Source: a virus (taxonomy: Duplodnaviria > Caudoviricetes). From it: 56,842 nt of DNA. The notes below the pieces were generated by a model. The model had not been told where the DNA came from. It searched no databases and worked only from the letters and a program-made list of their open reading frames with translations. A program made the translations under genes and the position numbers. Positions 18,023-49,250 of this stretch are shown one piece after another (within the stretch, counting starts at the first letter, position 1; the number at the start of each line of letters is the position of its first letter). The stretch spans positions 1 to 56,842 of the IMG/VR virus record IMGVR_UViG_3300033182_000318, one strand, 5' to 3'.

Positions 18023-18024
18023 AT

Positions 18025-29557: not shown

Positions 29558-29701
29558 TTATTCTTCTTCTGTTTTAGCTATTGCTAGTTTTTTACCAAAA
29601 CGTTTATTGTACTGACGACAACCTACATTTCCGCAAACTCTATAGTTATCTCTAATTTTAAATTGGCTTTTACAACTCTTGCAGTTTTCTATAAATTTCA
29701 T
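29558..29701 (-). CDS. Small Zn-finger protein (47 aa)
   Basis: Hand-translated MKFIENCKSCK...VCGNVGC; AAGGAG upstream. Confidence 0.55.
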   Translation of the reverse strand: MKFIENCKSCKSQFKIRDNYRVCGNVGCRQYNKRFGKKLAIAKTEEE

Positions 29702-29885
29702 GCTCTCAGTTTATCTCCTTCTAAAAATTTTCTGTATATAAAAAATGGGTGACCAACGGATAAGTGGAAAAAGGCAAATTTTTGGGGGGGTGGGGTGCAA
29801 AGTTTTTCATGTTAAGTACTCATCACCAATCTTGTGTATAAATCGCTGCTGCATGGCTACTGAGTTGTTAAACGAGAGCTAAATG

Positions 29886-30137
29886 TCAATCCACTAGCTC
29901 TAGCAACCAGCTCCCATTGATTTTTATGCTCTCAAAATCTGTTTTAATCATGTGCTGCTGTCTGGATAAGTATGCTTTAGTTCTCTTATCTGTATTATGG
30001 CTACTGGTTACATTGGTTGGGCTATTTATTGAGAACGTTGCATTGTTATTTACAAAGTTCCTAGAAACTAAATCCTTTAAATCTACTTGTTCTCCACTCA
30101 CTAACCCTAGCATGAAGGCTTTTTCTATATCAATCAT
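29886..30137 (-). CDS. Hypothetical protein (leaderless)
   Basis: 83 aa; TATAAT 6 nt before ATG. Confidence 0.5.
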   Translation of the reverse strand: MIDIEKAFMLGLVSGEQVDLKDLVSRNFVNNNATFSINSPTNVTSSHNTDKRTKAYLSRQQHMIKTDFESIKINGSWLLELVD

Positions 30138-30149
30138 GAGAACATTATA

Positions 30150-30584
30150 CTAAGAAACTGCATCACCATCAATTTCCTGTCTTATAGCTTGTAAGTACTC
30201 CTCTTTGCTCCCATCAACAATCATAACTCCCTGTGTGATTTGTTGTTTTATTTCGGTCTGTTTCGGGGCTTCGAGTCCATATATCTTACTTATTCTATCC
30301 ATAACCGATAAAGCTCTGTCAATAGCTCCTAATTCTCCTTGTTGAACTCTTTCCCATAAGATTAATAAGATTTGATTTAGTCGCTCATATTCTACTTGTC
30401 GGAGTTCATCTGTAGGCTCGGCGATTATGGTTTTCATACTACGTTGAACACTCTTATAGGCTCCACTACTATCAGCATATCCTAATTGCTTTGCAATGAC
30501 CTCATAACTAGCTCCAGCTTTGCGTAATTCTAATGCTTGTCTGTCTTTTTCTCTTACTTCGATTGATTTAGTATTTACTTTCAT
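30150..30584 (-). CDS. HTH protein, probable terminase small subunit
   Basis: ALELRKAGASYEVIAKQLGY HTH; RISKIYGLEAPKQ, a pattern typical of TerS-like proteins. Confidence 0.65.
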   Translation of the reverse strand: MKVNTKSIEVREKDRQALELRKAGASYEVIAKQLGYADSSGAYKSVQRSMKTIIAEPTDELRQVEYERLNQILLILWERVQQGELGAIDRALSVMDRISKIYGLEAPKQTEIKQQITQGVMIVDGSKEEYLQAIRQEIDGDAVS

Positions 30585-30865
30585 GTACTCTGTTTATCTT
30601 ACTCTCAAACTGTCATCTATGCAAAGCCAAACCCCATGAATTTTGAATATCGCATAGAGGTCTTGAATTATGTCTTGTTTCGCCATAACTTGTAGTACCT
30701 AAATACTATTTTTAATCTTAAATAGCTACTATATGAGGACTGGAAATAACTATTTATGTTGTGTTTATTCTTTTTATTTACCTATTATATTAAATGATTT
30801 AATGACACCGAAGCCGAATTTTTTGAAAATTTCTTGCATTTGAGGTCAAAACCCTACCTTTGAGC

Positions 30866-30883
30866 TTGTGAAAAATTTCACAA
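30866..30883. promoter_or_regulatory. Palindromic operator matching the Rex box
   Basis: TTGTGAA-AAAT-TTCACAA. Confidence 0.55.
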
Positions 30884-30941
30884 AGTACAACTATTAGGCA
30901 TGTACTCAACTAATTTTTGCTCAAAAATGGCTATTTTTTTC

Positions 30942-30978
30942 ATGAATATTTATACATGAAAAATGTATAAATATACAT
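30942..30978. repeat. AT-rich inverted repeat
   Basis: ATGAATATTTATACAT-GAAAA-ATGTATAAATATACAT (15/16). Confidence 0.7.
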
Positions 30979-31092
30979 AAATTTTTAGTCCTCTTGTCTA
31001 AAATCCCATTAAATAAGGCTTTAAAATAGGCTTATTTTATGGGCTTTTTTCCAGCTTATTTATTGAAAAAATCTTAAAAATAGGCTACCTAT

Positions 31093-31121
31093 TTGCGAGG
31101 ACTATAGTATACTTATTATAA
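31093..31121 (+). promoter_or_regulatory. Putative promoter for the + strand island
   Basis: TTGCGA plus overlapping TATACT/TATTAT -10 candidates; spacing imperfect. Confidence 0.35.
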
Positions 31122-31660
31122 GGTATTTTATATCTTAAACCATCTTGGATAAAGAGGACAATAGGTGGTAGTTAGCCTACAGTCGTTGTCGGAGGACAAA
31201 ATGGAACTGGCTTTCAGCCTAAGTGCAAAATCTCTCCAAGAGGACACACAGAGCTTGTGTTTTCAAGCTGACTAGAGGACAATAATATACTCTTTTGACC
31301 TTACTGTCAGATGAGGACACAAGTTAAGCCTTCGGTGTATGAGGGCTTAGTCTGTTGTGTTGGTGGTTGATATTGGAGCAACCATACGACTTGCGGAGGA
31401 CGTCTCAGTATAGCGTGATACACCATACCCAAGACCAAAAGTCTTGAGGTCAGTAATCCACTTCAGTTCAAGAAGTAAAAACTACCAAGCTAGGTAGAGG
31501 ACTAACGTTTTATGTGTTAGAAATTGTCTGTGCGTTGGTGTGTAGGGAGAGGACACTTTCCCGTGTAGCCAAATAGTTTGTACAAAAGTACCATAATCAT
31601 AAAAAAGAGGTCTTTTCTTAATAACCAAGTTCCTACATAATAGAGGACGCCTAGTGGATA
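31120..31660 (+). ncRNA. Candidate large structured ncRNA / 5' leader
   Basis: No credible ORF; at least 10 hairpins or helices, e.g. 31252-31269, 31325-31349, 31430-31446, 31482-31497. Confidence 0.5.
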
Positions 31661-31666
31661 ATCGTA

Positions 31667-31941
31667 CAATACGCATTACAATGTCCTCATAGAAATGGGG
31701 GTAATATATGGCTAGAATTGGCTCATGCAGAAGATGTGGAGGACACAATTCCTCAACTTGCTCCTGCAATAGATTAATGATTAATACTAATTTTCCAATT
31801 CAAATGGGATTGGATAAAAAAAGAGGTCAAGCTCAAAAAATACTAATCAAAAATCCTGAAAAAATACAACAAATAATAGACATATTAACTAATTAATTAA
31901 AACTAACTAACTAACTAATGAGGACATTACAATGCGTATTG
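31667..31941. repeat. Inverted repeat pair A (31667-31690 / 31918-31941)
   Basis: CAATACGCATT-AC-AATGTCCTCAT vs ATGAGGACATT-AC-AATGCGTATTG; 22/24 bp. Confidence 0.9.
31708..31896 (+). CDS. Small Cys/His-rich protein
   Basis: CRRCGGHNSSTC; GGGGG RBS; enclosed by IR pair A. Confidence 0.6.
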   Translation: MARIGSCRRCGGHNSSTCSCNRLMINTNFPIQMGLDKKRGQAQKILIKNPEKIQQIIDILTN

Positions 31942-31983
31942 AACATACACTTCCTAATGTACTCCGAGAAAGAGAGTATATAT

Positions 31984-32265
31984 ATGGATAAACAACAATT
32001 AGCCGAATTAGTTGAGTATTTTGGTGAGGTCAAATTCACTAGAAAACAACTTAATCTAATTCGAGAAATCTTAAATATGAACACAATGTCATTAGTCAAT
32101 GAGTACAGCAACAAAAACTCTAAGAGTTTCAAAGTTGCATTAGATAAATTGGCTAGTGTTAATTATGATATAGCAAACGTTATGACAGAGGTCAGCCCAT
32201 CATTTAACCGAGATAAATGGTTTGATGAGGGCAACAAAACCTCAAATGCTCATATGATTTGGTAA
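31984..32265 (+). CDS. Hypothetical protein
   Basis: Start set to MDKQQL (purine-rich RBS); C-terminal SPSFNRDKWF. Confidence 0.6.
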   Translation: MDKQQLAELVEYFGEVKFTRKQLNLIREILNMNTMSLVNEYSNKNSKSFKVALDKLASVNYDIANVMTEVSPSFNRDKWFDEGNKTSNAHMIW

Positions 32266-32280
32266 TATTAAGGAGTACAT

Positions 32281-32400
32281 ATGAGTAAATTTCAACCAAA
32301 GTTCGTTTGTTATTGGTGTAAAACACAATTAGCAGAGGGCGAACAACTTACAGAAATAAAAGGTAACTTTTACTGTAAAAATTGCGATAATGTTAGGTGA
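32281..32400 (+). CDS. Zn-finger miniprotein (39 aa)
   Basis: Hand-translated MSKFQPKFVCYWC...GNFYCKNC; AAGGAG RBS. Confidence 0.65.
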   Translation: MSKFQPKFVCYWCKTQLAEGEQLTEIKGNFYCKNCDNVR

Positions 32401-32548
32401 GGTCGATACACGTATAAAATGTATGTGTAATCAATTCATGGCTAAAGTTTCCGTAATGGCTAACGTAAAGAGTACAACACTTGTACAATTCTTTTGTTTC
32501 CATTGTGGTGCGAGTACTGTAGCTAAAGAACAAGCAAAAAGAGTATAA
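32390..32548 (+). CDS. Zn-ribbon miniprotein (52 aa)
   Basis: Hand-translated MLGEVDTRIKCMC...FFCFHCG. Confidence 0.5.
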   Translation: MLGEVDTRIKCMCNQFMAKVSVMANVKSTTLVQFFCFHCGASTVAKEQAKRV

Positions 32549-32640
32549 AACAAGATTTCGGAGTACATTATGAAGTGTATGGTATGAATTATAACAATCA
32601 GTAATCTACGATAGGTCTGTGTCCTCGTGGAAGGATAAAA

Positions 32641-33546
32641 ATGAATAAAGATAGAGTTATCTTATCAGAGGACGTAAGTTCTCTAATCCCTAAAGGCTCT
32701 TTAGACAATTATGTTGAGAGAGTATTAGCAGGAGGTCAAACAGACCTACAAATACTAGCATACGCACACAAAGTAATGCACAATGTCCTCATTACTGGGG
32801 ATACAGGTGTTGGTAAAACTCATAGTGTTTCAGCTCATGCTGAGAGTACAAGTTTACCATTTGTTTCCATAGCTTGTAATGGTGCTACTAACCCAGACCA
32901 AATGTTTGGGCAATTTAAACCATCAGAGGACGGAAATGGCTTTGAGTGGGTAGACGGAATTGTTACAACTTTAGTAAGAAATGGTGGTGTCCTCTTACTA
33001 GATGAGGTTAATTTTATGAAACCTGACATTTCGGCTGCCCTCCACCCTTTGCTAGATAGTCGCAGAACACTAACTCTAGTTGAAAATGGTGGCGAGGTCA
33101 TCAAAGCTCATAAGGAATTTCAAGTAGTTGCTTGTATAAATCCTAATTATGAGGGCACTAGACCATTAAACGAAGCATTTAAAAATCGCTTTGGTATTCA
33201 TTTAGAATACACCTACGAGGGCAACAATGAGGATATTCTCGTTGAGAATAGACCTACTTTGCTTGAACTCGCAGACAAGCTAAGAGTTGCTCGTGAAAAT
33301 GGTACGATTGCTACACCTGTGAGTACAAACTCACTTATGGAATTTGGCGAATTTGTTGAGGACTTAGGTCTGGAATTTGCTATATCCAATTTCGTTAATA
33401 AATTCGATATTGATGAAAGAGCAGCAATCAAAGAGTACTTTGATGTATTAATACCACAAATCGCTAACGAATTTGGCGAGGACGTTCCTGACATGTTTGT
33501 CAATGATGTACCTCAATCAAATGACTTAGATGATACAGATAACTAA
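32641..33546 (+). CDS. MoxR/CbbQ-NirQ-type AAA+ ATPase
   Basis: GDTGVGKT; LLLDEVN; NPNYEGTRPLNEAFKNRF. Confidence 0.9.
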   Translation: MNKDRVILSEDVSSLIPKGSLDNYVERVLAGGQTDLQILAYAHKVMHNVLITGDTGVGKTHSVSAHAESTSLPFVSIACNGATNPDQMFGQFKPSEDGNGFEWVDGIVTTLVRNGGVLLLDEVNFMKPDISAALHPLLDSRRTLTLVENGGEVIKAHKEFQVVACINPNYEGTRPLNEAFKNRFGIHLEYTYEGNNEDILVENRPTLLELADKLRVARENGTIATPVSTNSLMEFGEFVEDLGLEFAISNFVNKFDIDERAAIKEYFDVLIPQIANEFGEDVPDMFVNDVPQSNDLDDTDN

Positions 33547-33561
33547 GAGAGGACTAACTTA

Positions 33562-35529
33562 ATGGATTATGAAAAAATGTCCATTGAGGAATATAACGAG
33601 TTGATAGAGAGAATGGTTGAGGACACCTCAGCCAACTCTCTTGATGAAATGTCTGCTGAGGACAAACAACGTAAATCTATGGTTGATATTATCGGTCAGA
33701 GTTTTGCGAGTACATTTACTAAGGTAAATCGTATTTTACTTGGCGACTATGAAACTCAAATATTTCTTGAGGACGGTAGACAAAAAATGGTTGATGCTCC
33801 TGCATGGACAGATGGCGAGGACGTATATTTGAATAAAAGATACGTTGCGAAATCTTTTGCTAATTTGGTAGAAAGTAACCAAATTAACTTTAAGAACATA
33901 GCAGAGGTCAAAGGTCTTAACTATCATGAGTTGGCTCATATTTTCTTTACACCAAGAATGAATAGCAAGATAGCGAAAGAGGTCAGAAAAATGGCTGATA
34001 ACTTTCCTGATTATTGGTATGCGTACAACGTGTTAGAGGACTTACGAGCAGAAATGTCTATGGTTATGATATTCCCAAAAATTGTTGATTATTTTTCAAT
34101 CGCAGTTTTTAACTATATCTTAAACCAAGAGGACGGTGATGTTGCAAATTCTTATATGTTGTTAAGTGGTAGATATTTTTTACCAATCGAAACACGTATG
34201 GAAATGAGGTCATTATTCGCACAAGAATATGGCGAAAAATTCACAAAGAATATGGAACAGATTGTCGAGGACTATGTTAAAAATATCACTTATACAAACA
34301 CCCGATATCAAGAGGGCTATGACTTAATCGAAAGATTTGTCATAGAAGTGTTAAAGCCTATGAGGACAAAATCTGGTAAGGCTTTACCGAAGTGCATAGG
34401 TGGTAGTCAACACGTACATGATAAAGATGCAGGAGCAGGTCGAGGTCATTGGGGAAAGAAAACCTTACAAGGTAGTCTTTCTAAAGGTACTACAAGAGTA
34501 CAAGACCAAAAACTTGTTAAACCTTATATAGAGGAATTAATTAATGAAGTTAAGGAAACTATAGAGGACATTAAATCTAACGAAGTTACTAACTTAGGAA
34601 CGAAAGCTGGACGAGGTCAAACTGATAACCAATCGGTTAAAGATGTAAAAGCTAGTTTAGAGGAAATTATCGAAATATACGAGTCCAATCCTACTTTCAA
34701 AAATGATGTTGAAATTACTAAAAAAGATATATCAGCAAAAATTGAGAAAGCAGTTGAGGACATTAACGTTGTCGGTATTACTGCTCAACCTATGCTTGTT
34801 GCACCTTCTCCGAGTACACTTAGTCTAAAATCTCAAATTGATAGATATTTTAGACAATTAAGAATTGACTTAGAGCAAGATTGGTTACGAGGTCGTAAGA
34901 CAGGTATCGTAGATATGAACAGATTAATGAGGACACAACATCTTCCTAGAGCAGATGTTTTCAAAAAATGGAAACCTAGCGAGGAGGACGCTGCTACTAG
35001 CGAGTGTGTTATATTGCTTGATATGTCAGGCAGTATGGACAGCGTTGCGAGGTCAGCTAGTGAAGTTGTGTGGATATTAAAACAATCGTTAGATAAAATC
35101 GGTGTGAGGACTACAGTATTAGGCTTTGCAAATCAATGTTATATTATTTACAAACCTAATCAAAAAGCAATTAGAGGACAAGTTCCTGTATATGCTACTG
35201 GTGGTGGAACTCAACCCGAGTACGCATTGAAACAAGCATTAAACGTTTTACGTACAAGTGATAGAAACAACAAATTTGTTGTTGCCCTCACTGATGGTGC
35301 TTGGACAGATAGCGAAAAAGAAATCGAATTAGTTAGAGAAATTACAAAAGAGGTCGATAGTTCAAATCTCTTATTCTATGGTGGATATTTCGACATGGAG
35401 AGGGCTAAGGACAAAGACAAATATGCTTTTGGAAATTTTACTAACATTAAGCAAATAAAGAAGTTAGAGGACACTTTAGATATTGTAAAATCTATCGTTT
35501 CCGATATAACTAATAAATATATATACTAA
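33562..35529 (+). CDS. VWA-domain partner with N-terminal HExxH-like region
   Basis: APAWTDG; HELAH; NVLED; MIDAS DMSGS, GGGT, LTDG. Confidence 0.85.
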   Translation: MDYEKMSIEEYNELIERMVEDTSANSLDEMSAEDKQRKSMVDIIGQSFASTFTKVNRILLGDYETQIFLEDGRQKMVDAPAWTDGEDVYLNKRYVAKSFANLVESNQINFKNIAEVKGLNYHELAHIFFTPRMNSKIAKEVRKMADNFPDYWYAYNVLEDLRAEMSMVMIFPKIVDYFSIAVFNYILNQEDGDVANSYMLLSGRYFLPIETRMEMRSLFAQEYGEKFTKNMEQIVEDYVKNITYTNTRYQEGYDLIERFVIEVLKPMRTKSGKALPKCIGGSQHVHDKDAGAGRGHWGKKTLQGSLSKGTTRVQDQKLVKPYIEELINEVKETIEDIKSNEVTNLGTKAGRGQTDNQSVKDVKASLEEIIEIYESNPTFKNDVEITKKDISAKIEKAVEDINVVGITAQPMLVAPSPSTLSLKSQIDRYFRQLRIDLEQDWLRGRKTGIVDMNRLMRTQHLPRADVFKKWKPSEEDAATSECVILLDMSGSMDSVARSASEVVWILKQSLDKIGVRTTVLGFANQCYIIYKPNQKAIRGQVPVYATGGGTQPEYALKQALNVLRTSDRNNKFVVALTDGAWTDSEKEIELVREITKEVDSSNLLFYGGYFDMERAKDKDKYAFGNFTNIKQIKKLEDTLDIVKSIVSDITNKYIY

Positions 35530-35601
35530 ATAAATCGAGGACATTAGACCTATCGTAGATTACTGATTATCAAAATTACTCTTTATTAATTAGGAGGACA
35601 T

Positions 35602-35769
35602 ATGACACTAATGCAAATGTTTTTCAAAGATTGTGATAATTGTGGGAGTACTACAATTTGGACAAAACTTGAACAACGCAGCGAAACTCAAACTCTAGTC
35701 GAGTGCGACCAATGTGAAAGGCAGGAAATCATGCCGACTACAGTACACGAGGACGTTTTAGATGGTTGA
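35602..35769 (+). CDS. Zn-ribbon miniprotein (55 aa)
   Basis: Hand-translated CDNCG...VECDQC; AGGAGG RBS. Confidence 0.65.
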   Translation: MTLMQMFFKDCDNCGSTTIWTKLEQRSETQTLVECDQCERQEIMPTTVHEDVLDG

Positions 35770-36148
35770 TGACATTAAAAATATTTTAATATCGTTAAAT
35801 CTAATTCGTACACAAAAGTTATCCTTAGATGACCAAGAGAGTACATTAAAAGCTAAGTTAATGCAATACCTTAAAAATAGTGATATGAAAAGTTTTTCAA
35901 TATCACATGAGGGCTTAAACATTAAATCTACTCTAGTCAAAAATGACAGAATAGAAATTGATGAATTAGGACTTATTGAGGACTTATCTACAGAACAATA
36001 TAATAAAATTATTAAAAAATCTATAGATAAAAAATTGCTTGAAATCGCCATTAAAAATGGGGATATATCAGAGGACATAGCTAAGAAATATCTCAAAGTC
36101 AAAACAGGTAAAGACTATATAAAACTTAATGTTGAGGAGGACAAGTAA
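35762..36148 (+). CDS. Hypothetical protein
   Basis: 128 aa; coiled-coil N-terminus. Confidence 0.6.
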   Translation: MVDDIKNILISLNLIRTQKLSLDDQESTLKAKLMQYLKNSDMKSFSISHEGLNIKSTLVKNDRIEIDELGLIEDLSTEQYNKIIKKSIDKKLLEIAIKNGDISEDIAKKYLKVKTGKDYIKLNVEEDK

Positions 36149-36447
36149 TGATTAATCCAATACAAAAATCCCCCTCAGCATTGAGGACTTGGGTTGATAA
36201 AAACACAAGAGAAAAAGTCTATTTACCGATTGACTTAGCGAGGTCTTTAGATGTGGATATCAAGACAGTTCGTAGATGGTTGAGAACAAAGAAAATTTTG
36301 CCTAGTTATCATTTAACGCAGGGAAAAAATTCAATACCAATATGGACTGCTGAGGACATTATCTATGTACAAAATTGGTATGTAAACAAATCAAAAGGAA
36401 AACAACCTAAATATAGAGAGGAGGTCAGTACAGATGATAACATTTAG
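36148..36447 (+). CDS. MerR/Xis-like HTH DNA-binding protein
   Basis: DLARSLDVDIKTVRRW...WTAEDI. Confidence 0.7.
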   Translation: MINPIQKSPSALRTWVDKNTREKVYLPIDLARSLDVDIKTVRRWLRTKKILPSYHLTQGKNSIPIWTAEDIIYVQNWYVNKSKGKQPKYREEVSTDDNI

Positions 36448-36637
36448 TAGTGGCTTACATTTAGCAATTATATTCGTAATGGCTTTAGCTATGCTTTATA
36501 TACTTTTCGAGGTCTATAACGTAGTTAGGCTTTATATTGCCGAATATAAATACAACAAAGAAAAACCAATAAACATTGACTTTAACAAGAGTACAGATGT
36601 TGATGAGTTTTTCAATAATACTTACAAAACATGGTAA
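36434..36637 (+). CDS. Small membrane protein
   Basis: N-terminal TM helix. Confidence 0.55.
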   Translation: MITFSSGLHLAIIFVMALAMLYILFEVYNVVRLYIAEYKYNKEKPINIDFNKSTDVDEFFNNTYKTW

Positions 36638-36852
36638 AAAAACCAAGTCTAAACGAGGGCGATACCATAGAACACGCTTTAACTGTTGAAACTGTTATAG
36701 CTGGTCAAAAAATATGGATAAAGACAGGAGCTACCACTACTGTGAGGACAGGCGAAAGTCCGAGTGGTGCTAGTAAACGTTTAGCCAACTTTGTAAGCAG
36801 GAGGACTTCACAACAAGTGCAAGAAATCCGAAACGCAGGTAAATCAGAGTAA
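36631..36852 (+). CDS. Hypothetical protein
   Basis: 73 aa; last gene before terminator. Confidence 0.55.
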   Translation: MVKKPSLNEGDTIEHALTVETVIAGQKIWIKTGATTTVRTGESPSGASKRLANFVSRRTSQQVQEIRNAGKSE

Positions 36853-36882
36853 TTTTGAGTACATAATTCATACGTACCTTTT

Positions 36883-36932
36883 GGGGATAGTAGTTAAATT
36901 TTATTATTTAGCTACTATCCCCATTTTTTTTT
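36883..36932 (+). terminator. Intrinsic terminator of the + strand island
   Basis: GGGGATAGTAGTTAAAT / ATTTAGCTACTATCCCC stem followed by a T-run. Confidence 0.85.
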
Positions 36933-37496
36933 GTGCTCTTTTTTTTGAGATAGAACCCCCCCAGCAGCCCACAAAAAAAAGAGTGCATTTTTCAGTTTTC
37001 ATGACACACCCAGCAGAGAAATATCAGAATATTGAGAACAATTTTTGTTAAATTCCCACGGAGGCTAGGCTTCCAAAGAGAACAGATTTGCTTCGCTGCC
37101 ATTAAATTATGTTCTCTTTTCTTCTAATTCTCGCCATCTGGCTTTTGCAAGAAACTGTGCTCGGGAAGGAAGGAGTGAATTTTTGAGATGCTCTCATTTT
37201 TTTTTCACCCAAGGGGGAATGTCAGGAAAAAATAAAGAGCTCACCAAACACCAACCCCACCTCCATCTTCAAAAAAAAAAAGTACTCAGAACCCATCTCA
37301 GCATCATTTTTGCTCTCTTTTTTTAGTGCGAACCGTTTGCAAGAAGAATTGTCCTCTTTTTTTTACGCAACATAATAAATGTCCTCGTTTTTTGAAAATA
37401 CACCTTTAAGGGCACTTTAAAAATGCACTCGGAACTTTCAAAACTTCCACAAATGAAAAATGATATTTTTGACTAACTATATAAGAGTGCGAAAGT

Positions 37497-38882
37497 TTAA
37501 AGACTCCAAGGACTTTTCTCACGAACAAAATCAATTAATGGTGCTAACGCTTCAAACTTAAATCCACGTTCTGCCCATGCTAAAGCCATAGCAACCATAC
37601 TGTCAGGTGTGTGACCATTTCCAAAGATATCATCAAAACCAGCATATTTATGGTCTTGATACATACTTTCTATCATTGGACTTTGAATTAATCCACGCTC
37701 ACACGCAGAAATATATTCAGAAAATAAATTCTTTTTATTACTTCCAGTAATTACATAAGGAATTGAATCAACTGTTATATAATCTTCTACTACATTACCA
37801 ATACCAGTAGCATCATGAACTAATTTACCAGGATATTTAGCTAATCTTTGTTCAGCTTTTGCTACCATATCTCCCCAAGGTTCACGGTGTGTTCTTTCAA
37901 AAGCAACTACACGCCAAGGCTCAACATCAGTTCTTAATGTAACTATAACTGTACAATCTCTTTGTTTCGCCCAGTCCACTCCAGTTATGTAAGTGCCCTC
38001 CCCCATATATTTTTCGAACTGGTATTCTACACCGACTTCTCCAGAAACCTTATCGTGTGTTTGTAATGAAAACATTTCATCAACTTTCTCTGCTTCTATA
38101 GCTCTACCTTCAAATGAAGGCTCTTGCATATCAAACTCTATATCCCACATAGCTTGTGAAACTTCACTTCTTTTTCTTTCTACTTCAGAAGGTTCTAACC
38201 AACCATGTGGTTTAACTGTTTCTCTCCAACACCATTCATATACTGGATAACCTTTTTCTTTTGCTCGTCTAAGCATTTCTGTCATAGTTTTATCTGGATA
38301 TTGGTGTGTAGAAGAAGCAACTGTTTGTGTTTGAATACCATTCTTAGCCATTGGCTGTCCCTGTGCTGCTTCTAAGATATCTAGCTCCATTTCATCTATC
38401 TCATCTAGTCTTAATCTTTGTGGGTGCTGACCACGAACAGACCTTTGTGAAGCTGTTAAAGCTCTAATCCAAGCTCCTGAAGTTAAATTAGTTGAATATT
38501 TGTTTGGTGCATCTACTAAAAGACCTGTAGGTGCGTTTTTATGTGCCCATGCTTCTAAAGATATTTCATAAACACGAAGTGATTGTGCTGCTGAACCTCC
38601 TAGTACTGTTACCTGAGCTCCTAAAGTTACTGCTTCCGTCAAGGCTAATAATCCTAAAGTATTAGTTTTTCCTCCCATACCACGACTAGCTTTCCAAATA
38701 GAAAAAGGATGCCTACCGAAGTAAGCATCAGCGAATGCCTCAAATGGAGATTGGTGGTGTGGACAAATAGATGTTCTTGGTATGGATATTCCCCATAATA
38801 AACGAACTACTTCCCATAATTCATCATCATCTTGGGGTGGTCTGCCTAGAATTAGCTGTTTTTTTGTTTCTGTTTGTTCCAT
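37497..38882 (-). CDS. terL: Terminase large subunit
   Basis: SRGMGGKT; VRG...LRLDEIDE; nuclease GVDWAK...D; PDSMVAMALA. Confidence 0.85.
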   Translation of the reverse strand: MEQTETKKQLILGRPPQDDDELWEVVRLLWGISIPRTSICPHHQSPFEAFADAYFGRHPFSIWKASRGMGGKTNTLGLLALTEAVTLGAQVTVLGGSAAQSLRVYEISLEAWAHKNAPTGLLVDAPNKYSTNLTSGAWIRALTASQRSVRGQHPQRLRLDEIDEMELDILEAAQGQPMAKNGIQTQTVASSTHQYPDKTMTEMLRRAKEKGYPVYEWCWRETVKPHGWLEPSEVERKRSEVSQAMWDIEFDMQEPSFEGRAIEAEKVDEMFSLQTHDKVSGEVGVEYQFEKYMGEGTYITGVDWAKQRDCTVIVTLRTDVEPWRVVAFERTHREPWGDMVAKAEQRLAKYPGKLVHDATGIGNVVEDYITVDSIPYVITGSNKKNLFSEYISACERGLIQSPMIESMYQDHKYAGFDDIFGNGHTPDSMVAMALAWAERGFKFEALAPLIDFVREKSPWSL

Positions 38883-38893
38883 AATTAGTTAAA

Positions 38894-38956
38894 ATTATAC
38901 CACAGGTGATTTCAATAGCGTAGTGGAGGTAAACAGGAAACACTATGAAATCACCT
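38894..38956. promoter_or_regulatory. terL extended -10 promoter with adjacent hairpin
   Basis: Minus-strand TGGTATAAT 11 nt before terL ATG; AGGTGATTTCA/TGAAATCACCT stem 38904-38956. Confidence 0.55.
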
Positions 38957-39002
38957 AAATGTGTTATTATTATTGTAGCAATATATAAAGAAAGGGCTAC
39001 TT

Positions 39003-39413
39003 GTGTCAGATATTGAACTAACTAGCACGGTTTATGTGCCAGATAACTTAGCTGAATATGATAAATATTTAGTAGAGTTTTATTGTGATATTCCTTATGA
39101 TTATGATAATCCTACCGAAGAACAAGTGTTCTTTTGTTTAGGTCATTGGGATAATGAAGAAGTTTTATATATTAAAAAAGTTGTACCAATAAAAAACATA
39201 GCGGAGGATAAACAAAATAAATTTGAAGTTAATCCTCTCGACTATGAAAAATATTCTAATTTATTAGTTGCTATAATTCACACACATCCTAATAATAATG
39301 TTTTTCCTTCAGATGAAGATATTAAACACTTACCTAAAGATGTTATTGGTGGTATCTATCAACCTACAACAAACCACGTTATATGGTGGAATGCTTATAA
39401 ATTAGATTTATAA
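39003..39413 (+). CDS. JAB/MPN (JAMM) metalloprotease-domain protein
   Basis: E...HTHP....PSDED JAMM motif. Confidence 0.8.
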   Translation: MSDIELTSTVYVPDNLAEYDKYLVEFYCDIPYDYDNPTEEQVFFCLGHWDNEEVLYIKKVVPIKNIAEDKQNKFEVNPLDYEKYSNLLVAIIHTHPNNNVFPSDEDIKHLPKDVIGGIYQPTTNHVIWWNAYKLDL

Positions 39414-39414
39414 A

Positions 39415-39735
39415 TTAGCCTCTTTTTGTTCTTCTAGCTGGTGTTGGTGTAGTTTTTAAAGGACCACGCTTTGAAGCAGCAGCTCTAACAGCAGCTACGT
39501 TACTTCTAGCAGTAATACTTTGTGCCCTTAAAATGTTTCTAGCTCTTGTTTTAGCTCTTGCACCTTTGTTAGGGTCATTAACTGTAGCCTGTGCATTTGT
39601 TAATTGCTTGAACTTTGTTGCTCTTGCAGAACCAGCTTTGAAAGGGTTTCTTTTACTACCTCTAGCTCTTTGTTGTGCAGAACGTGTTGCACCAGAACCA
39701 GACCCAGCACCTTTAATTGTAATTACATTATTCAT
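39415..39735 (-). CDS. Highly basic Arg/Lys/Ala-rich protein
   Basis: 106 aa with one acidic residue. Confidence 0.6.
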   Translation of the reverse strand: MNNVITIKGAGSGSGATRSAQQRARGSKRNPFKAGSARATKFKQLTNAQATVNDPNKGARAKTRARNILRAQSITARSNVAAVRAAASKRGPLKTTPTPARRTKRG

Positions 39736-39771
39736 AGTAAGAACAATAGTTAGTGAAAAAACAAACGCAAG

Positions 39772-41193
39772 TTAGTCGTCTATATGTTTAGGCTTTGAAC
39801 CAGGTGCTAATGGGTCGTACATTTCTCCATCTTTACCTTCTTTTTTATCATATACAACACCACGTCTTTTGTGTGCATAGTTGTATAAATAAGTAGTTGG
39901 CATATCTGGTTTCACTCTTTCTTTAACTAAATTATGTCCTGGATTTCCTCCATAGATTAATAAGTGCTCTGGTTGTAAAGCATCCAAGGCTATCTTTGTA
40001 CAATTAGCTAATACTTGAATAGATTTCTCTCTTGTATCACGTTTTGGATTACCTTCTTCGGCATCTATATTCTGTAGGCAAATAGCTAAGATAGGTGGAT
40101 TTTTAGGTATTCCTAACATAGCTATATCCATTGATTGCTCATCTGCGAATTGAACACGTGGTATAACTTTTATTCCAACTTCTTGAAACATACGTCCTAA
40201 CCATTGTGCGTTATATACTGCTTGTAAATGGAAGGCTTTTGGTTCTGTAAAATAAAAAGAAAAGTCTGGAGCAATAGCTGTTTTAATTCCAGCACTAACT
40301 ACTTTCTGTATCATATAACCAGTATGAGTAATAAAGTTAAAGAACTTATGGTCATGTGTAAAGAAAGACATAATAGCTCTTTCATATGGCATACCTATTG
40401 GTCTTGCTAAACCATAATTCCATAACCAATGTGTTATACCATCATCTGGTGTTGCATCTCTACCTCCCCATGTATCTAATGGTTGTGGTAGTTTGTCTAA
40501 CAACATATCCCTTCTTAATTCTGGTATATCCCATCTATTGTTTGTAGGAAGAAAAAGTTTTTCATCATCTATCATTAAAACACTTTGGTCTATTTTATTA
40601 TCTAATTCGACATTATCGTCAAAGCCATCTTCTTCGTCATCATCTTCTGTTATACCGATATTAATATCTGTTAGTCCGTCTAATGTATCAGGTATTTCAT
40701 ATTCCCCTTGCTGTGGGTTAGATAAACCATCAATGTATGTATCTAAATTAGTATTACTACTTGTTAAACTATCAAATGTTTGAGTTAAACTTCTATCAAC
40801 AGCATCAATTATCATACTTACATCTTGTGTTGTATAACCAGTACCAACTGGGTTTTTAACATTTTTCAATAAATTAGCTAATTGACTTGTATCATATGAA
40901 GCTAAATCGTTTGTTCTGTTATCTGCTAAAACAATTTTAGAAGCCGATTCATCATCAACATCAACATAAGCTACTTGTATAGTTTCCCATCCTAAACTTT
41001 TTGCAGCCATCCATGTGTGATTACCAGCTAATATAGCGTTATCTTTTTTATTAACAACGATAGGTTTGTATTGTTTGTTTTCATTTAATGATTCAGCAAT
41101 AGCTTCAATGCTACCTACTCTAGGATTTCCTTTATATGCTTTTAAATCCGTAACTTTTACATCTGCTATTTCAATTACTCTGTTGTTTTCCAT
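39772..41193 (-). CDS. ParB/Srx N-terminal domain fused to DUF4417-like domain
   Basis: NPR...KPIVV...ILAGNHT...LADNR; C-terminal FFTHDHKF, APDFSFY, GIKVIP. Confidence 0.7.
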   Translation of the reverse strand: MENNRVIEIADVKVTDLKAYKGNPRVGSIEAIAESLNENKQYKPIVVNKKDNAILAGNHTWMAAKSLGWETIQVAYVDVDDESASKIVLADNRTNDLASYDTSQLANLLKNVKNPVGTGYTTQDVSMIIDAVDRSLTQTFDSLTSSNTNLDTYIDGLSNPQQGEYEIPDTLDGLTDINIGITEDDDEEDGFDDNVELDNKIDQSVLMIDDEKLFLPTNNRWDIPELRRDMLLDKLPQPLDTWGGRDATPDDGITHWLWNYGLARPIGMPYERAIMSFFTHDHKFFNFITHTGYMIQKVVSAGIKTAIAPDFSFYFTEPKAFHLQAVYNAQWLGRMFQEVGIKVIPRVQFADEQSMDIAMLGIPKNPPILAICLQNIDAEEGNPKRDTREKSIQVLANCTKIALDALQPEHLLIYGGNPGHNLVKERVKPDMPTTYLYNYAHKRRGVVYDKKEGKDGEMYDPLAPGSKPKHIDD

Positions 41194-41569
41194 TTTTCCT
41201 CCTACGTAATTCTAGCTCTCTTTTATAATTATGTTGTAATAATTTTCTTTCCTCTGGTGTATAACCACCAAATATTCCCATATCAGATTTAGTTATTATT
41301 GCAAAGTCTAAACATTCACGTTGTACTGGACAAGCATGACACACTTCTTTGGCATCTTCTTCTGTATAAAGATATTCTCCATCTACTTTTACTGTAGGAA
41401 AGAATTTGTTACTATCTTCACCAACACAATTGCCATTATTTTTCCAATCCCCTTCTAATAAAATTTGTATATCTGTATTACATTTCCAATCATCTGGTTT
41501 TTCTCGAATAAAAGAAGGTTGAAACTTTGGTATTAATTTACCATATTTAAGTTGTTCGTCTTCTTCCAT
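41171..41569 (-). CDS. whiB: WhiB-family Fe-S transcription factor
   Basis: C...FFP...CHACPVQRECL...GIFGGYTPEER. Confidence 0.9.
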   Translation of the reverse strand: MEEDEQLKYGKLIPKFQPSFIREKPDDWKCNTDIQILLEGDWKNNGNCVGEDSNKFFPTVKVDGEYLYTEEDAKEVCHACPVQRECLDFAIITKSDMGIFGGYTPEERKLLQHNYKRELELRRRKNGKQQSN

Positions 41570-42104
41570 TGATTACTTCCTTATCCCAACCGTATAATGC
41601 TATTCCTGTAGCATCACACATATCTTGGTTATGAAATTCTGTAGTTGGGTACATAGCTTTTATATGATTAGCTATGTCTTCTTTACTAGCGTTACCTTTA
41701 CCTATGGCTACTTTCTTCCATGTTGAATTATTAACTATTTGTACTGGTATGTTATAACGTTGTAGTGTATCAATAATAGCTCCAGCAACATATGTTTGAC
41801 TAACTGTAGACCAGACACCACCTTTACCAACTACCGCTCCTTCAATAACAGCGTAAGTAGTAAATTGTAAATCTGGGTCTAATTGAGTGACTACCTTATG
41901 TACAAAGCTAGTTCCTATTGTGATATGACTTGTGTCGAATTTTGTGCCTGGAAATGGCTGATAAAAGCAGTATGGTTTTAAGTTGGTTGGTTCTGTTTCT
42001 TCTTCTCCATGTAATAGCGTTAAAGCTAATTTACGTGCAGAAGGGTCAATTCCTAAAACTTGCCATTTGATACCCTTCATCCTGTTCTTGCTCCAATCTA
42101 GCAA
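41547..42104 (-). CDS. RuvC-like Holliday junction resolvase
   Basis: LGIDPS; IEG; WKK..GKGNASKE; DA.GIA. Confidence 0.8.
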   Translation of the reverse strand: MLDWSKNRMKGIKWQVLGIDPSARKLALTLLHGEEETEPTNLKPYCFYQPFPGTKFDTSHITIGTSFVHKVVTQLDPDLQFTTYAVIEGAVVGKGGVWSTVSQTYVAGAIIDTLQRYNIPVQIVNNSTWKKVAIGKGNASKEDIANHIKAMYPTTEFHNQDMCDATGIALYGWDKEVINGRRRTT

Positions 42105-42438
42105 CTGTTATTCTCCTAGAACCTAAATCCACTTGGGCTTTAAGAAGCTCTAAGCATGAACGCAGTTCCCCTGTTCTATATTTGTAGTGTTTACTTCCTT
42201 TGAGTATAACACCGTTGCTCTCTAATTGGTGCAATTTAGCCTCAATTTCTTTGGCTCGTGAATAGTATGCTGTAGCAAGTTCTAATAATGTATCAATACC
42301 ATCTTCAAGTGGTGCTGGTTTTCTACCAAATAATACATCAATATATTCTTGTATTTCATTACGAACTTGGTCTAAGTTTCTTAACTCATGACCTACTTTG
42401 ATTGCTTTAATTGCCATTTGGAAATTCCAAACATTCAT
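42046..42438 (-). CDS. Hypothetical protein
   Basis: Helical protein in recombination operon. Confidence 0.55.
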   Translation of the reverse strand: MNVWNFQMAIKAIKVGHELRNLDQVRNEIQEYIDVLFGRKPAPLEDGIDTLLELATAYYSRAKEIEAKLHQLESNGVILKGSKHYKYRTGELRSCLELLKAQVDLGSRRITVARLEQEQDEGYQMASFRN

Positions 42439-43171
42439 TTCTATAAGGACACATTTGATATTCTTTACCTTGTCTTAATCTGCATTGTTCTTTTACATCA
42501 GGATATGTAAAGAATAAAACACCATCTTCTAAAGATTGCATTTCTGCTTTGACTTCAGTTAATATCTTTGGGTCAGGATAAATTAAAAACTCTCTCCAGT
42601 CTTGTGTTCTTTTATCTTCGTAGATAACACTAAATAGTTTTATTTCTGGGTCTAAAACAAAATAAGTATGTATTTGTTTTAAGTGTATATCTTTAACTGA
42701 ATCAGTCATATAGCTTGTGCCTTTTAATTCAAAACCATATTTCCCATATTCTTTGCTAAAGCCTATACCATCTATAGAACCACCAAAGCTAGGATATTTT
42801 TCACTACTAACTTTAGTTTCAACATCTGTCAAAGCACCTGACATCAATCCCATCATTTGCCAACGAATATGTCGCCATGTTCCATCATTAAATAAATTTT
42901 GTAAAGTTGTATCAACCATATCTAACTTTTGAATGTCACCTGTATAATCAAACATTTGTTTTCTTAAACAACTTCCACGACTAGACGCACCAAATCTTCC
43001 TGTACGTTTTGAGTTAGAATTATCTGAAACAATTTCAATTAATTTATCTTGAATTGTTTTATCCGTAATAACAATATTTTTTTGTTCAGATAAGAATTTA
43101 TCAATTATTGGTGTAATAATTTTTTTTGTTTTTTCTAAATTAAGTTCTGATATTAAATTAGTTAGTGACAC
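42407..43171 (-). CDS. PD-(D/E)XK / Cas4-like exonuclease
   Basis: SSRGSC; GTWRH; GSIDG; ELK; C-terminal C...CPYRNEC. Confidence 0.75.
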   Translation of the reverse strand: MSLTNLISELNLEKTKKIITPIIDKFLSEQKNIVITDKTIQDKLIEIVSDNSNSKRTGRFGASSRGSCLRKQMFDYTGDIQKLDMVDTTLQNLFNDGTWRHIRWQMMGLMSGALTDVETKVSSEKYPSFGGSIDGIGFSKEYGKYGFELKGTSYMTDSVKDIHLKQIHTYFVLDPEIKLFSVIYEDKRTQDWREFLIYPDPKILTEVKAEMQSLEDGVLFFTYPDVKEQCRLRQGKEYQMCPYRNECLEFPNGN

Positions 43172-43610
43172 CTTCGTACCAACCTTTCTCTGGTGTCCAC
43201 CAGTAATAAGGTTTATCTGGTTTTTCTTTCCAGTTAAACTGTTTGTACCAATCTTGGTCTTTTCTTAATAGGTTAGCTCTATGTGAACTATGTAAGTTTT
43301 CATTGCCTAACCAATGTGGTTTCCATTTTGGTTTTTCTAAAGCGAAGTGTTCATACTTGTTTAGAACTTTTTCCATGACTGTATCGTTAAAGCCACGTTG
43401 TTTCCACTCATGACAAATCATAACTGTATATAAAACTAACCATTGCTCATGTCCTGTCCACATTTTAACAATAGGATGATTTTTCCAACCTGTTTGATTT
43501 TCTATACAGTTAAGTATTTGCATACCTTCTACCCGTTGTTTGCCTAATCTTTTGTCGTCTAATACTGAAGCACTTTTAACAAAGTCTTCGTATGGTAAAA
43601 ATGTTTGCAT
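43158..43610 (-). CDS. Pyrimidine-dimer DNA glycosylase family (MSMEG_6728-like)
   Basis: MQTFLPY...LDDKRLGKQRVE...HPIVKMW...SHRANLLRK. Confidence 0.85.
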   Translation of the reverse strand: MQTFLPYEDFVKSASVLDDKRLGKQRVEGMQILNCIENQTGWKNHPIVKMWTGHEQWLVLYTVMICHEWKQRGFNDTVMEKVLNKYEHFALEKPKWKPHWLGNENLHSSHRANLLRKDQDWYKQFNWKEKPDKPYYWWTPEKGWYEGVTN

Positions 43611-43741
43611 TATTTACCAGACCTTTTTCTTTTACTTTTAACAACTTTACTCATAAAGTTAGAACTATTATTTGCTTTAGTTAAGCCACGATATTGTCCA
43701 CCTTTTTTAGACTTCATAGCTCTACGTTCTGCTCTGTTCAT
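43610..43741 (-). CDS. Small basic protein (43 aa)
   Basis: Hand-translated MNRAERRAMKSKK; GGAGG RBS. Confidence 0.5.
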   Translation of the reverse strand: MNRAERRAMKSKKGGQYRGLTKANNSSNFMSKVVKSKRKRSGK

Positions 43742-43764
43742 TCTTCCTCCTGTTTTAATTCAGC

Positions 43765-43887
43765 TTATGCTTCTAGTTCTGAAGCACAGTAATCACACAT
43801 GTGTATGTCTCCTTGCTCTATATAGATACCACCATCATGGCTATGAAAGTGTCCATCACATCTTCCACAAATTAGTATACCACCCAT
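43765..43887 (-). CDS. Small Zn-binding protein (40 aa)
   Basis: Hand-translated CGRC...MCDYC. Confidence 0.45.
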   Translation of the reverse strand: MGGILICGRCDGHFHSHDGGIYIEQGDIHMCDYCASELEA

Positions 43888-44558
43888 TATAAATTATCTC
43901 CACCATTAACAATAGATTCTAAATATAATCCAGATATTTTTTGAAATACAATATCTAATGTTTGTAGATAAATAGGTGTTAAATTAAGGATAGAATCTTT
44001 CAACTCATCCGAATATAAGTGCTCGGTTAAATCGATTGCTTGTTCGTTCATTTCCTCATCATTATCACTAAAATTTATTCTTGTCATAAAAGAAGTAACA
44101 TTTTCTAAATGTGGTCTAGCAACTTCATTGTAATAATTACTCATTTGTTCTAAGTACCAATCTTTATCTGTTCCTTGATTTATCTTGTCACCAAACATCA
44201 TTTGTAGTGTTACCAAATGTCTGGATATTAAAACACTTCCAGCTAGAACCAACCAAACAAAAAATGTTACATCTGTAGATAATTGATGAGTAAATGCTTT
44301 GTATATATTACCCTCAAAATCATCTTGTTTCTTTTCTATTTCACCAGCTACTTTAGTGAAAGGTAAAACATTTGATTTTATCTCCCAAATGTTAGCGAAT
44401 GAAGGCGATTCATCTATTAATTGTGAAACTACCCTTAGATTTTTTTCTACGAATTGTAATATTTCTTCTACTTCTTCTTCAGAATCTGCTAATAATTTTA
44501 GTTTATCAACATCAACCTGAAACATAGCAAACAATTCGCTTCTGCTCATTTCGTCCAT
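43887..44558 (-). CDS. Hypothetical protein
   Basis: Likely start MDEMSR after AAGGAG. Confidence 0.55.
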   Translation of the reverse strand: MDEMSRSELFAMFQVDVDKLKLLADSEEEVEEILQFVEKNLRVVSQLIDESPSFANIWEIKSNVLPFTKVAGEIEKKQDDFEGNIYKAFTHQLSTDVTFFVWLVLAGSVLISRHLVTLQMMFGDKINQGTDKDWYLEQMSNYYNEVARPHLENVTSFMTRINFSDNDEEMNEQAIDLTEHLYSDELKDSILNLTPIYLQTLDIVFQKISGLYLESIVNGGDNL

Positions 44559-48771: not shown

Positions 48772-48980
48772 TGTTTAATCCAATCTAAATTTTTTCTTGT
48801 TCTGGCTATACCAGCTTTTCTTAATGACCATTCGGTAATGTGTTCTGCACACCTTACCACGTTAAATTCGCTATCTTTTCTTATTAACCAATATTTTCTA
48901 ATGGGATTAACTGATAAGATAGCTTTGCCACACTTATGACAAATTAAAAACTCTGGAATACTACTTTGTGTATCTTGCAT
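48726..48980 (-). CDS. Hypothetical Cys/His protein
   Basis: CHKC...RCAEH. Confidence 0.5.
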   Translation of the reverse strand: MQDTQSSIPEFLICHKCGKAILSVNPIRKYWLIRKDSEFNVVRCAEHITEWSLRKAGIARTRKNLDWIKQCQEKAKEQDRQFVI

Positions 48981-49233: not shown

Positions 49234-49250
49234 TGTGTTCCTTTCATATA

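Follow-up and report, generated by a model that had tools for sequence, protein, structure and literature searches.

A structured non-coding leader RNA and an operon-confined hexamer word in a phage genome from metagenomes

What is encoded by a stretch of some 540 nucleotides (nt) devoid of credible open reading frames (ORFs), placed at the head of a phage operon, and why does a short word recur in it? The stretch belongs to the virus record IMGVR_UViG_3300033182_000318 (Duplodnaviria; Caudoviricetes), the whole of which (56,842 bases, numbered on the + strand) is referred to here as the window. Long ORFs of the window lie almost all on the - strand, the lone exception being a + strand block at ~31.1-36.9 kb. 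This block is the sole rightward transcription unit of the genome, an operon termed here the "island" (~31133-36923), of which the leader RNA forms the 5' module. The original prediction, made from the letters of the sequence, proposed a hairpin-dense non-coding RNA at 31120-31660, studded with about 12 GAGGAC-type hexamers, that would serve as a decoy or scaffold and could be released by cleavage in one of its stems ("stem A"). The present analysis establishes that 31133-31661 (+) is a real non-coding structured RNA heading the operon. The hexamer, hereafter the code word, is indeed present in this RNA, but it is a feature of the entire operon and is absent from the remaining genome.

The leader RNA

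The leader is richer in GC than its flanks, as had been noted, with 200-nt windows at 0.445-0.450 (31200-31499) against 0.250 upstream (30900-31099) and 0.270 downstream (31800-31999), and an overall value of 0.42 for 31133-31661. Its three + frames hold 12, 13, and 10 stops. The longest + strand ORFs reach 36 amino acids (aa; GTG start at 31165) and 30 aa (TTG start), and no ORF of at least 15 aa is conserved across the six leaders compared. A 95-aa TTG ORF on the - strand (31482..31769) is disrupted by a 2-nt indel in two related contigs (L003/L004). The RNA could not be assigned to a known family, in agreement with the original prediction: a scan of the whole window with the 4227 covariance models of Rfam 15 gives no match at gathering score, and at E<=1 the region 30600-32000 returns only SSRC34_2, with 28.6 bits against a gathering score of 48 (E 0.032). 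No tRNA or tmRNA is found by the corresponding scan, and Tandem Repeats Finder detects no array in 31133-31661, where only the hexamer recurs.

Relatives of the locus were sought through the VWA-domain protein of the island. Four, then eight loci were obtained from viral contigs and seven from metagenomes, and only three lineages are known. The same search of species genomes retained 0 of 113 candidate stretches, and blastn of the island against 50,697 phage records gives no match. An 18-nt block of the leader used as a query returns eight stretches, five of them from contigs already known; the other three (L024, L025, and L028) are chance matches, with neither leader likeness nor code words. 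The leader RNA is found in just a handful of related metagenomic phage contigs.

The folding energy of the leader lies below that of dinucleotide shuffles, with z -3.80 for 31120-31660 and z -3.35 for 31133-31661, none of 100 shuffles being as good. The - strand gives z -3.06, and the leaders of contigs L018 and L009 give -3.57 and -2.27, respectively. An RNAalifold consensus of five variants of the leader (those of the window, L001, L003, and L009, and the far more divergent one of L018) reaches -98.2 kcal/mol and comprises 142 pairs, of which 38 are altered on both sides. Such compensatory pairs number 12.6 +/- 2.7 after shuffling (0 of 500 reach 38) and 6-13 when partners are slid by 1-3 columns, and 92.1% of the cells are paired in the consensus vs 84.2 +/- 0.7 in column shuffles. 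The consensus of the - strand is weaker (-65.1 kcal/mol, 119 pairs, 30 compensatory; covariation term +0.85 vs -3.75 on the + strand), which fits a + sense RNA.

The best-supported helices are found in the 3' domain (Table 1). Its closing helix (31489-31495/31649-31655) and the inner helix 31508-31514/31598-31604 are each 100% paired with three double changes, and the helix 31496-31502/31610-31616 placed between them is 97% paired with one such change (helices 13, 15, and 14 of the consensus). An invariant unpaired block lies near 31617-31629; its complement matches the genome 29 times vs 34 expected, i.e., at chance level. When only the close variants are considered, compensatory changes are found in the hairpins 31174-31177/31209-31212 and 31186-31190/31195-31199. 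A covariance model built on the 3' domain (R1) matches the window, L009, L017, and L018 (E 3.7e-44 to 2.7e-25).

The helices listed in the original prediction fared unequally. Those formed by TTGTC/GACAA, TAAGCCTTC/GAGGGCTTA, TGGTTG/CAACCA, and GGGAGA/TTTCCC are kept in the consensus, with compensatory or wobble changes. The CAAGAC/GTCTTG helix holds in the window and L001 types only, because the segment is replaced in L003 and L009. The ATCCACT/AGTGGAT helix is broken in L001, absent in L003 and L009, and competes with the covarying closing helix of the 3' domain. Stem A (TCTTGGA/TCCAAGA) appears in the single-sequence fold, drops out of the consensus fold, and displays zero covariation. Release of the RNA by cleavage in this stem loses its footing as well, since RNA-library contigs from two of four runs start upstream of it, at 31133, and read through.

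The leader is under purifying selection. Its identity to the window amounts to 83-94% in L009, L003, and L001 (83% over 527 nt in L009), whereas the four-fold sites of six genes shared by the window and L009 are 0.43-0.67 identical and island coding DNA is ~70% identical. A second, deeply diverged leader type, found in L017 and L018 beside island proteins that are 95% identical, has helices and blocks in common with the first. It is firmly established that selection acts on the structure of the leader and on the code word.

Parts of the island are contained in 24 metatranscriptome runs. The leader is covered in the four runs mapped, in all of them by contigs of an L003-like strain, which start at 31133 (two runs) or 31216 (two runs) and stop at 31661-31675, close to the extent first proposed. 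Loose letters stand directly ahead of 31133 on a contig of one run and directly past 31661 in another run; we take them to be Illumina adapter sequence, a hint only and no mapping of ends. Among the contig pieces listed, none spans 31675-31704, 32550-32586, or 35545-35564, where the arms of long-range stems are located (see below). Contig depth is 34-65 over the leader, 17-42 on a contig of the MoxR gene, and 0-9 in flanking late-gene bins. These gaps and depths are compatible with processing at the stems, with an abundant leader, and with RNA rather than carried-over DNA, and prove none of them. Folding energy, covariation, and presence in RNA libraries, the three checks that accompanied the original prediction, have all turned out in its favor, and together with the lack of a conserved ORF they give the leader the generic marks of a structured non-coding RNA.

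Upstream of the leader, hexamers resembling a promoter (Table 1) suggest that transcription starts shortly after 31093..31124. They were read by eye and are absent from the list of the consensus scan, and their spacer holds one GAGGAC (31097). This stretch is conserved in L001-L004, and similar TTATAWGG words are present upstream of the leaders of L010 and L018.

The code word and its switch

The code word is a family of four hexamers, GAG[G/T][A/T/G]C, that is GAGGAC, GAGGTC, GAGTAC, and GAGGGC. The window contains 50 copies of GAGGAC, all at 30735-37386 and 43 of them on the + strand, vs 11.3 +/- 3.5 in shuffles (0 of 100 reach 50). Three more words emerge on the island's + strand from an unbiased comparison of hexamers, GAGGTC (20 copies), GAGTAC (16), and GAGGGC (9), each of which hardly occurs elsewhere; the remaining twelve GAGNNC words are unremarkable. 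Altogether the family has 106 copies (89 on +, 17 on -), all within 29816-37995 and none in the other 48.4 kb. The dozen copies announced for the leader were confirmed as nine exact GAGGAC, two GAGGTC, and one GAGGGC within 529 nt, a density of one word per 44 nt vs one per 74 nt in the coding part of the operon.

The 86 sense-strand copies (31097-36857) are regularly spaced, with a mean gap of 67.8 nt, a coefficient of variation (CV) of 0.37, a minimum of 28, and a maximum of 168; 2000 trials of random placement give a mean CV of 0.97 and a lowest value of 0.71. No strict period is observed beyond this regularity, and no longer motif beyond position +1, which is never C after exact GAGGAC and mostly A family-wide. 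At orthologous leader positions the four words substitute for each other without decay. Within genes, the word occupies all three frames (39, 8, and 19 copies) and imposes itself on codon choice. In the island, 20 of 21 Glu-Asp dipeptides are written GAGGAC, vs 0 of 33 in the backbone; for Glu-Gly written GAGGGC the figures are 7 of 7 vs 1 of 42; and GAG accounts for 57% vs 10% of Glu codons. The backbone (48.4 kb outside 29701-38100) has no word on either strand, against Markov expectations of 4.5-5.7 on + and 11-14 on -, and the control families GTG.. and GGG.. occur there at expectation. The word itself is thus under selection.

At both borders of the island, the leftward genes bear clusters of the word on the - strand (Table 1), so the word is always co-oriented with local transcription. 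Among the interior - strand copies, three are paired with + strand words in long-range stems. Several island genes of the window have a ribosome-binding position overlapped by a word (e.g., at 33549, 35594, 35749, 36137, and 36421), which is not so in L010.

The same code is found in L009, part of a 57,276-base record (G001) whose VWA protein is 58% identical to that of the window. G001 carries the same four words on the sense strand (25, 17, 21, and 11 copies), and its other 49.6 kb are free of them on both strands. Four border words lie at 17971-18152, and the - strand arrangement of the divergent border recurs in L009 and L010. The 14.7-kb contig L010, the VWA protein of which is only 38% identical to the window's, equals L009 in the closeness of its backbone genes to the window (helicase 87% at the nucleotide level, terminase-like protein 87% at the amino-acid level) and yet lacks the GAG code. 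It displays instead 96 sense copies of GCG[G/T][A/T/G]C, with a mean spacing of 67.4, a CV of 0.48, a minimum of 26, and the same border arrangement, including five words at 11555-11702 that face the island end. In its backbone, GAG words occur at chance rate. The island evolves faster than the backbone and the word switches together with it, which suggests that a reader of the word would be encoded in or near the island. No code is seen in eight distant loci among 12 obtained with the terminase-like protein (52-68% identity, GC 0.43-0.70), nor in the GC-rich L011 and L012 (GC 0.59), which have a related VWA protein.

As a separate observation, the word family of the sister lineage, GCGKDC, is depleted in the backbone of the window (1-29700 and 38101-56842), with 1 + 3 copies on the two strands vs ~8 + 9 expected, and less so in G001 (3 + 7 vs ~10 + 10). 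This depletion might reflect past or cross exposure to a GCG reader.

Long-range stems and readings of the code

Directly after the leader come, one behind the other, three inverted repeats, 27, 24, and 32 nt long and 89-96% complementary, each of which encloses a gene cassette. The longest exact inverted repeat measures 23 nt vs a maximum of 17 in 30 shuffles. The loop-proximal end of each of the three stems is formed by a code word and its complement; in the third this pairing is reached past a small internal loop, by GTCCTC (32621-32626) with GAGGAC (35537-35542). The first stem is present in L003, and the bracket around the MoxR-VWA genes is found in L002/L003 and in L009 (23 nt, 100%). 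L010 brackets the same genes with 25 nt (96%) of entirely different sequence, and one of its stems pairs the word through two G.U wobbles, workable in RNA and not in DNA. A position kept with different sequence, together with these wobbles, suggests that the stems act at the RNA level. Such flanking stems, present at a conserved position in three lineages, would suit a putative RNase III-processed precursor.

L001 and L002 lack the 62-aa and 93-aa ORFs and possess a single 30-nt stem, with changed and compensated sequence, around the 39- and 52-aa ORFs. This segment (4676-5025 vs 31664-32581 in the window) is a cassette polymorphism flanked by ~97% identical DNA, the junction of which falls in similar stem arms, as if the arms recombined. 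An invertible segment of the Gin/Hin type was discarded: cassette orientation is identical in every contig examined (the window, L001-L004, L009, L010, and L018), and no recombinase family is found in the island by family scans. Integron attC sites do not fit either, as the arms enclose the cassettes rather than follow them.

The reading given tentative preference is that the leader is a processed non-coding RNA offering a dense, multivalent platform to a putative reader of the code word. The leader would be transcribed from just downstream of the promoter-like hexamers, as the 5' module of the operon, and, untranslated, would serve the word-reading factor as a high-density sponge, nucleation site, or scaffold. 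A cut at the first long-range stem would separate it from the mRNAs, much as RNase III acts on rRNA precursors and early RNAs of phages. Release, if it takes place, is likelier at the 3' end of the RNA (31661-31690), where this stem begins. Pointers to a reading of the word on RNA are the sense orientation of the word throughout, the stems that pair it with its complement, and the end of the array 25 nt ahead of the terminator (last + strand word at 36857).

Several points weigh against this platform reading. The 38 compensatory pairs come from five sequences, of which four are close, and were counted on a structure obtained from that very alignment. Conservation of the leader could partly result from recombination between lineages, since L017 and L018 have a very different leader beside 95%-identical proteins. 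The RNA evidence consists of assembled contigs, which cannot show RNA ends, strand, level, or absence. The leader counterpart in L010 (~560 nt, 10 words, no long ORF) is unalignable, has z -0.49 with ends that were guessed, and contains no homologue detectable with the R1 model. The trait common to the three lineages is hence an ORF-free, word-dense operon head, the particular leader fold being common to the GAG lineages only. Accessibility of the word is not selected, its predicted unpaired probability in local folds being 0.040 vs 0.037 for other GC-rich hexamers. Words also occur on the + strand upstream of the RNA start (30657, 30735, 30842, and 31097 in the window, seven in L010), and in L010 some lie past the terminator. 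Words outside the transcript and avoidance on both strands of the backbone suit a DNA reader at least as well as an RNA reader, and the minimum spacing is footprint-like. Finally, no reader was identified: family scans of the island proteins find no RNA-binding or nuclease family, and Pfam at E<=1 gives only weak HTH_17/MerR and zinc-ribbon hints. Sequence searches of the PDB with the 128-aa, 144-aa, and VWA proteins return nothing useful, and an AlphaFold model of the 128-aa protein (predicted local distance difference test 79.7) has no Foldseek match at E<=0.001.

It is possible, if doubtful, that the word serves as an address code. One operon would be marked with an oriented hexamer specific to the lineage (GAGKDC, or GCGKDC in the sister lineage), purged from both strands elsewhere and recognized by a dedicated reader encoded in the island. 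The leader would then be the high-density entry site or sponge of this reader, and cuts at the long-range stems would turn the precursor into end-paired mRNAs. The main cargo of the island is a MoxR-VWA (CobS/CobT-like) pair, in which the gene of an AAA_5 ATPase adjoins that of a VWA-domain protein. Relatives of these two proteins remodel ribonucleoprotein particles, and the pair could act on the resulting RNA-protein complex. If true, the address code would represent a new viral way of distinguishing one class of a virus's own transcripts (or DNA).

A purely cis-acting 5' untranslated region (UTR) that stabilizes or times operon expression, for instance by shielding the 5' end or by offering a platform for processing, and has no role once cut off is a somewhat unlikely account, in which words would outnumber those of the genes simply because the sequence is otherwise unconstrained. 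The leader is contiguous with the operon and stands right behind its sole promoter-like site, the code spans the entire operon rather than the leader alone, and no trans target of the invariant unpaired block was found in the genome. However, a conserved and covarying structure that extends over 529 nt is longer than one expects of a UTR, helices and blocks are retained in common by two deeply diverged leader types, and the leader is more conserved than the genes downstream.

Reading of the word on DNA is unlikely. An oriented protein that binds or nicks DNA, for which the 99-aa protein with weak HTH_17/MerR likeness is a candidate, would decorate the operon. The array might stop head-on replication or antisense transcription in a polar manner, or signal replication or packaging. 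The leader region would chiefly be where this array is densest, beside an AT-rich divergent control region, and the structure of the RNA would be of secondary importance. To the words beyond the transcript and the unselected RNA accessibility are added the backbones of two genomes, without words on both strands (0 vs 4.5-5.7 antisense and 11-14 sense), the flips of orientation at the divergent and convergent borders in all three lineages, and a minimum spacing of 26-28 that suits a protein footprint. This account leaves unexplained the helices kept by compensatory or G.U changes, the stronger + strand consensus, and the stems pairing the word with its complement. Moreover, the + strand array of the window halts before the terminator, and family scans of the island yield no recombinase, nickase, or initiator.

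It is quite improbable that the words are cleavage sites of a sequence-specific endoribonuclease shutting off a presumably early operon, as T4 RegB does at GGAG, the leader being the first or a decoy substrate and middle or late genes escaping for want of the word. The words of the island are sense-oriented, as are those of the divergent leftward unit over its first 1.2 kb; none occurs on the backbone's sense strand, several overlap ribosome-binding positions, and the word switches together with a fast-evolving island. On the other hand, the island has no nuclease homologue that could be found, ordinary decay requires neither 86 evenly spaced sites nor antisense avoidance, and the ribosome-binding sites of L010 are free of the word. 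RNA-library contigs of 1.3-3 kb, in addition, run across dozens of words.

That the stretch encodes one or more small proteins is hardly credible, for its short ORFs, such as the 36-aa frame, are not conserved amid 10-13 stops per frame, and indels of 1, 2, and at least 17 nt separate close relatives.

Three further candidates were rejected. A Shine-Dalgarno sponge is at odds with the GCG lineage, the word of which is not Shine-Dalgarno-like. Primase sites would leave 48 kb without a word that must be primed too. Base-pairing to a fixed guide conflicts with positions 4-5, which vary beyond the pairing of any single partner.

Related systems and genomic setting

ROOL, GOLLD, and OLE are large ornate RNAs borne by phages or bacteria (PMC12286853). 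The leader resembles such RNAs in being ORF-free, phage-borne, rich in helices, of a size close to their 500-800 nt, and of unknown function. It differs from them by the absence of an Rfam match, its position as an operon leader, and a hexamer common to the whole operon. T4 RegB targets GGAG in early mRNAs (PMC1702504). GGAG is similarly a short G-rich sense word in one transcript class, often at ribosome-binding sites, and has a bearing on the fate of these transcripts. Unlike in T4, no RegB-like protein is found in the island scans. To our knowledge, the GGAG of T4 is neither evenly spaced, nor enriched through codon choice, nor excluded from both strands elsewhere.

CsrB and RsmZ are sponge RNAs of CsrA with repeated GGA motifs exposed in hairpin loops, and the leader, likewise non-coding, displays a short motif some dozen times among its hairpins. 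Its word, however, is not preferentially unpaired and extends through 5 kb of coding sequence as well. Nor is a GGA core maintained, since GAGGTC, GAGTAC, and GAGGGC replace GAGGAC at the same sites. In rRNA operons and T7 early RNA, RNase III stems are formed by complementary segments flanking units of a polycistronic precursor. The flanking arms of the island are similar, and RNA-library contigs start or stop near them, a weak likeness. Here, in contrast, the stems enclose protein-coding cassettes of 0.2-3 kb, those of the GAG lineages each include a code word paired to its complement, and cleavage is putative.

Chi, KOPS/SRS, and DNA uptake sequences are genome-wide, replication-oriented, and kilobases apart. 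The code word shares with them a short, strand-oriented, and lineage-specific character and selection even inside genes, but it is limited to one 6-kb operon and its borders, where it recurs every 68 nt. The type III antitoxin ToxI consists of tandem repeats of ~34-45 nt beside the gene of a toxin RNase, and phages can carry a pseudo-ToxI mimic. The leader would be comparable in being repetitive, carried by a phage, and a proposed ligand of a sequence-specific RNase; it has, however, no tandem repeat units, and the island scans find no toxin family. Word-matching searches of open-access papers return no precedent, although one may exist in print, and we know of no described system that resembles a structured leader combined with an operon-confined hexamer code.

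If these proposals are true, the leader would found a new family of large structured phage RNA with defined ends, helices, and conserved unpaired blocks, and the word an undescribed type of cis-acting code, a regularly spaced oriented word of 6 nt in one transcription unit only. The switch between sister phages (A to C at position 2) would be a natural change of specificity and thereby a built-in experiment for the reader, and the long-range stems a design that loops out whole gene cassettes. The word and its reader could serve as an orthogonal RNA or DNA tag, and the system would bear on the means by which phages keep temporal or functional classes among their genes apart.

Table 1. Features of the island and its borders (positions on the window).
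Feature	Position	Strand	Details
Promoter-like hexamers	TTGCGA 31093-31098; TTATAA 31116-31121; overlapping TANNNT 31119-31124	+	17-nt spacer; read by eye
Structured non-coding leader RNA, ~529 nt	31133..31661	+	fold, no kept ORF, RNA-library contigs
3' domain of the leader	31489..31655	+	closing helix GCUAGGU (31489-31495) / GCCUAGU (31649-31655)
Array of 86 sense-strand code words	31097..36862	+	hexamer counts
12 leader code words	31154, 31192, 31240, 31275, 31313, 31341, 31396, 31446, 31497, 31549, 31607, 31643	+	
Six code words left of the island	29816, 30195, 30498, 30585, 30902, 30988	-	first 1.2 kb of divergent leftward genes
Three code words overlapping the left - strand zone	30657, 30735, 30842	+	
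Four code words right of the island	37282, 37351, 37381, 37995	-	3' end of convergent leftward operon
First long-range stem	arms 31664-31690, 31918-31944	+	27 nt, 89% complementary; loop-proximal GTCCTC paired with GAGGAC
62-aa Cys-rich ORF	31708-31896	+	inside first long-range stem
Second long-range stem	arms 31944-31967, 32558-32581	+	24 nt, 96%; loop-proximal GTACTC paired with GAGTAC
ORFs of 93, 39, and 52 aa	within 31944..32581	+	inside second long-range stem
Third long-range stem	arms 32587-32618, 35546-35577	+	32 nt, 91%; arms 2.9 kb apart, enclosing the MoxR-VWA pair
MoxR-type AAA+ (AAA_5) ATPase	32641-33546	+	AAA_5 E 1.5e-23; phrog_249 E 9.7e-46
VWA/HExxH protein, 655 aa	33562-35529	+	VWA_2 E 8.1e-07 (30.1 bits, cut-off 27); HExxH read in translation
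Distal operon genes: 55-aa zinc-ribbon-like, 128-aa, 99-aa HTH-like, 67-aa hydrophobic, 73-aa	35602..36852	+	Pfam hints weak
Intrinsic terminator ending the operon	36882..36933	+	18-bp stem plus T run

All distal operon proteins have homologues in L009 and L010. Four small island proteins, of 62, 39, 52, and 55 aa, are Cys-rich, and the last of them (35602-35769, +) weakly resembles the restriction-alleviation protein Lar (Pfam E 0.017, below cut-off).

The products of leftward (-) genes with a family match include a portal, a primase, a DnaB-type helicase, a family-A-like DNA polymerase, a UvsX-like recombinase, RuvC-like and Cas4-like nucleases, a ParB-nuclease protein, a WhiB-like regulator, and a terminase-like protein. 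The WhiB-like gene (41171-41569, -; phrog_472, E 2e-16) stands in a genome of 33% GC and presumably hints at a low-GC actinobacterial host. At 51317-56838 (-), four tandem paralogues of 303, 362, 341, and 347 aa all belong to phrog_2295; two of them have a phrog_7759 gene ahead, and GC climbs there to 0.50.

The first leftward gene (30150-30584, -) encodes the 144-aa protein with an N-terminal HTH-like segment, matching phrog_645 (labelled 'Rnase E', E 9e-26) and, weakly, a small-terminase PHROG and the Pfam families HTH_68/HTH_23. This protein is 79-86% identical across the three lineages, and its gene bears - strand code words. Between it and the leader extends the divergent control region (30585-31130; GC 0.25-0.29), which contains a 19-nt near-palindrome at 30939-30981 and direct repeats ending in AAAATAGGCT (31008-31032 and 31062-31086). 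Similar 'cccataaaataggc' repeats occupy the same place in L010, and the region is operator- or origin-like.

At the opposite end, past the terminator, the convergent intergenic region 36935-37497 displays long A/T runs, C-rich patches, and four 18-nt units (36928, 37106, 37307, and 37346) made of a T run, GNNCTC, and a second T run. On the - strand these units resemble degenerate code words (GAGCAC, GAGAAC, GAGAGC, and GAGGAC), and at the matching place L010 has units of a T run with GCGKDC. Possible roles of this region are those of a terminus, of a packaging site, or of an insulator of transcription.

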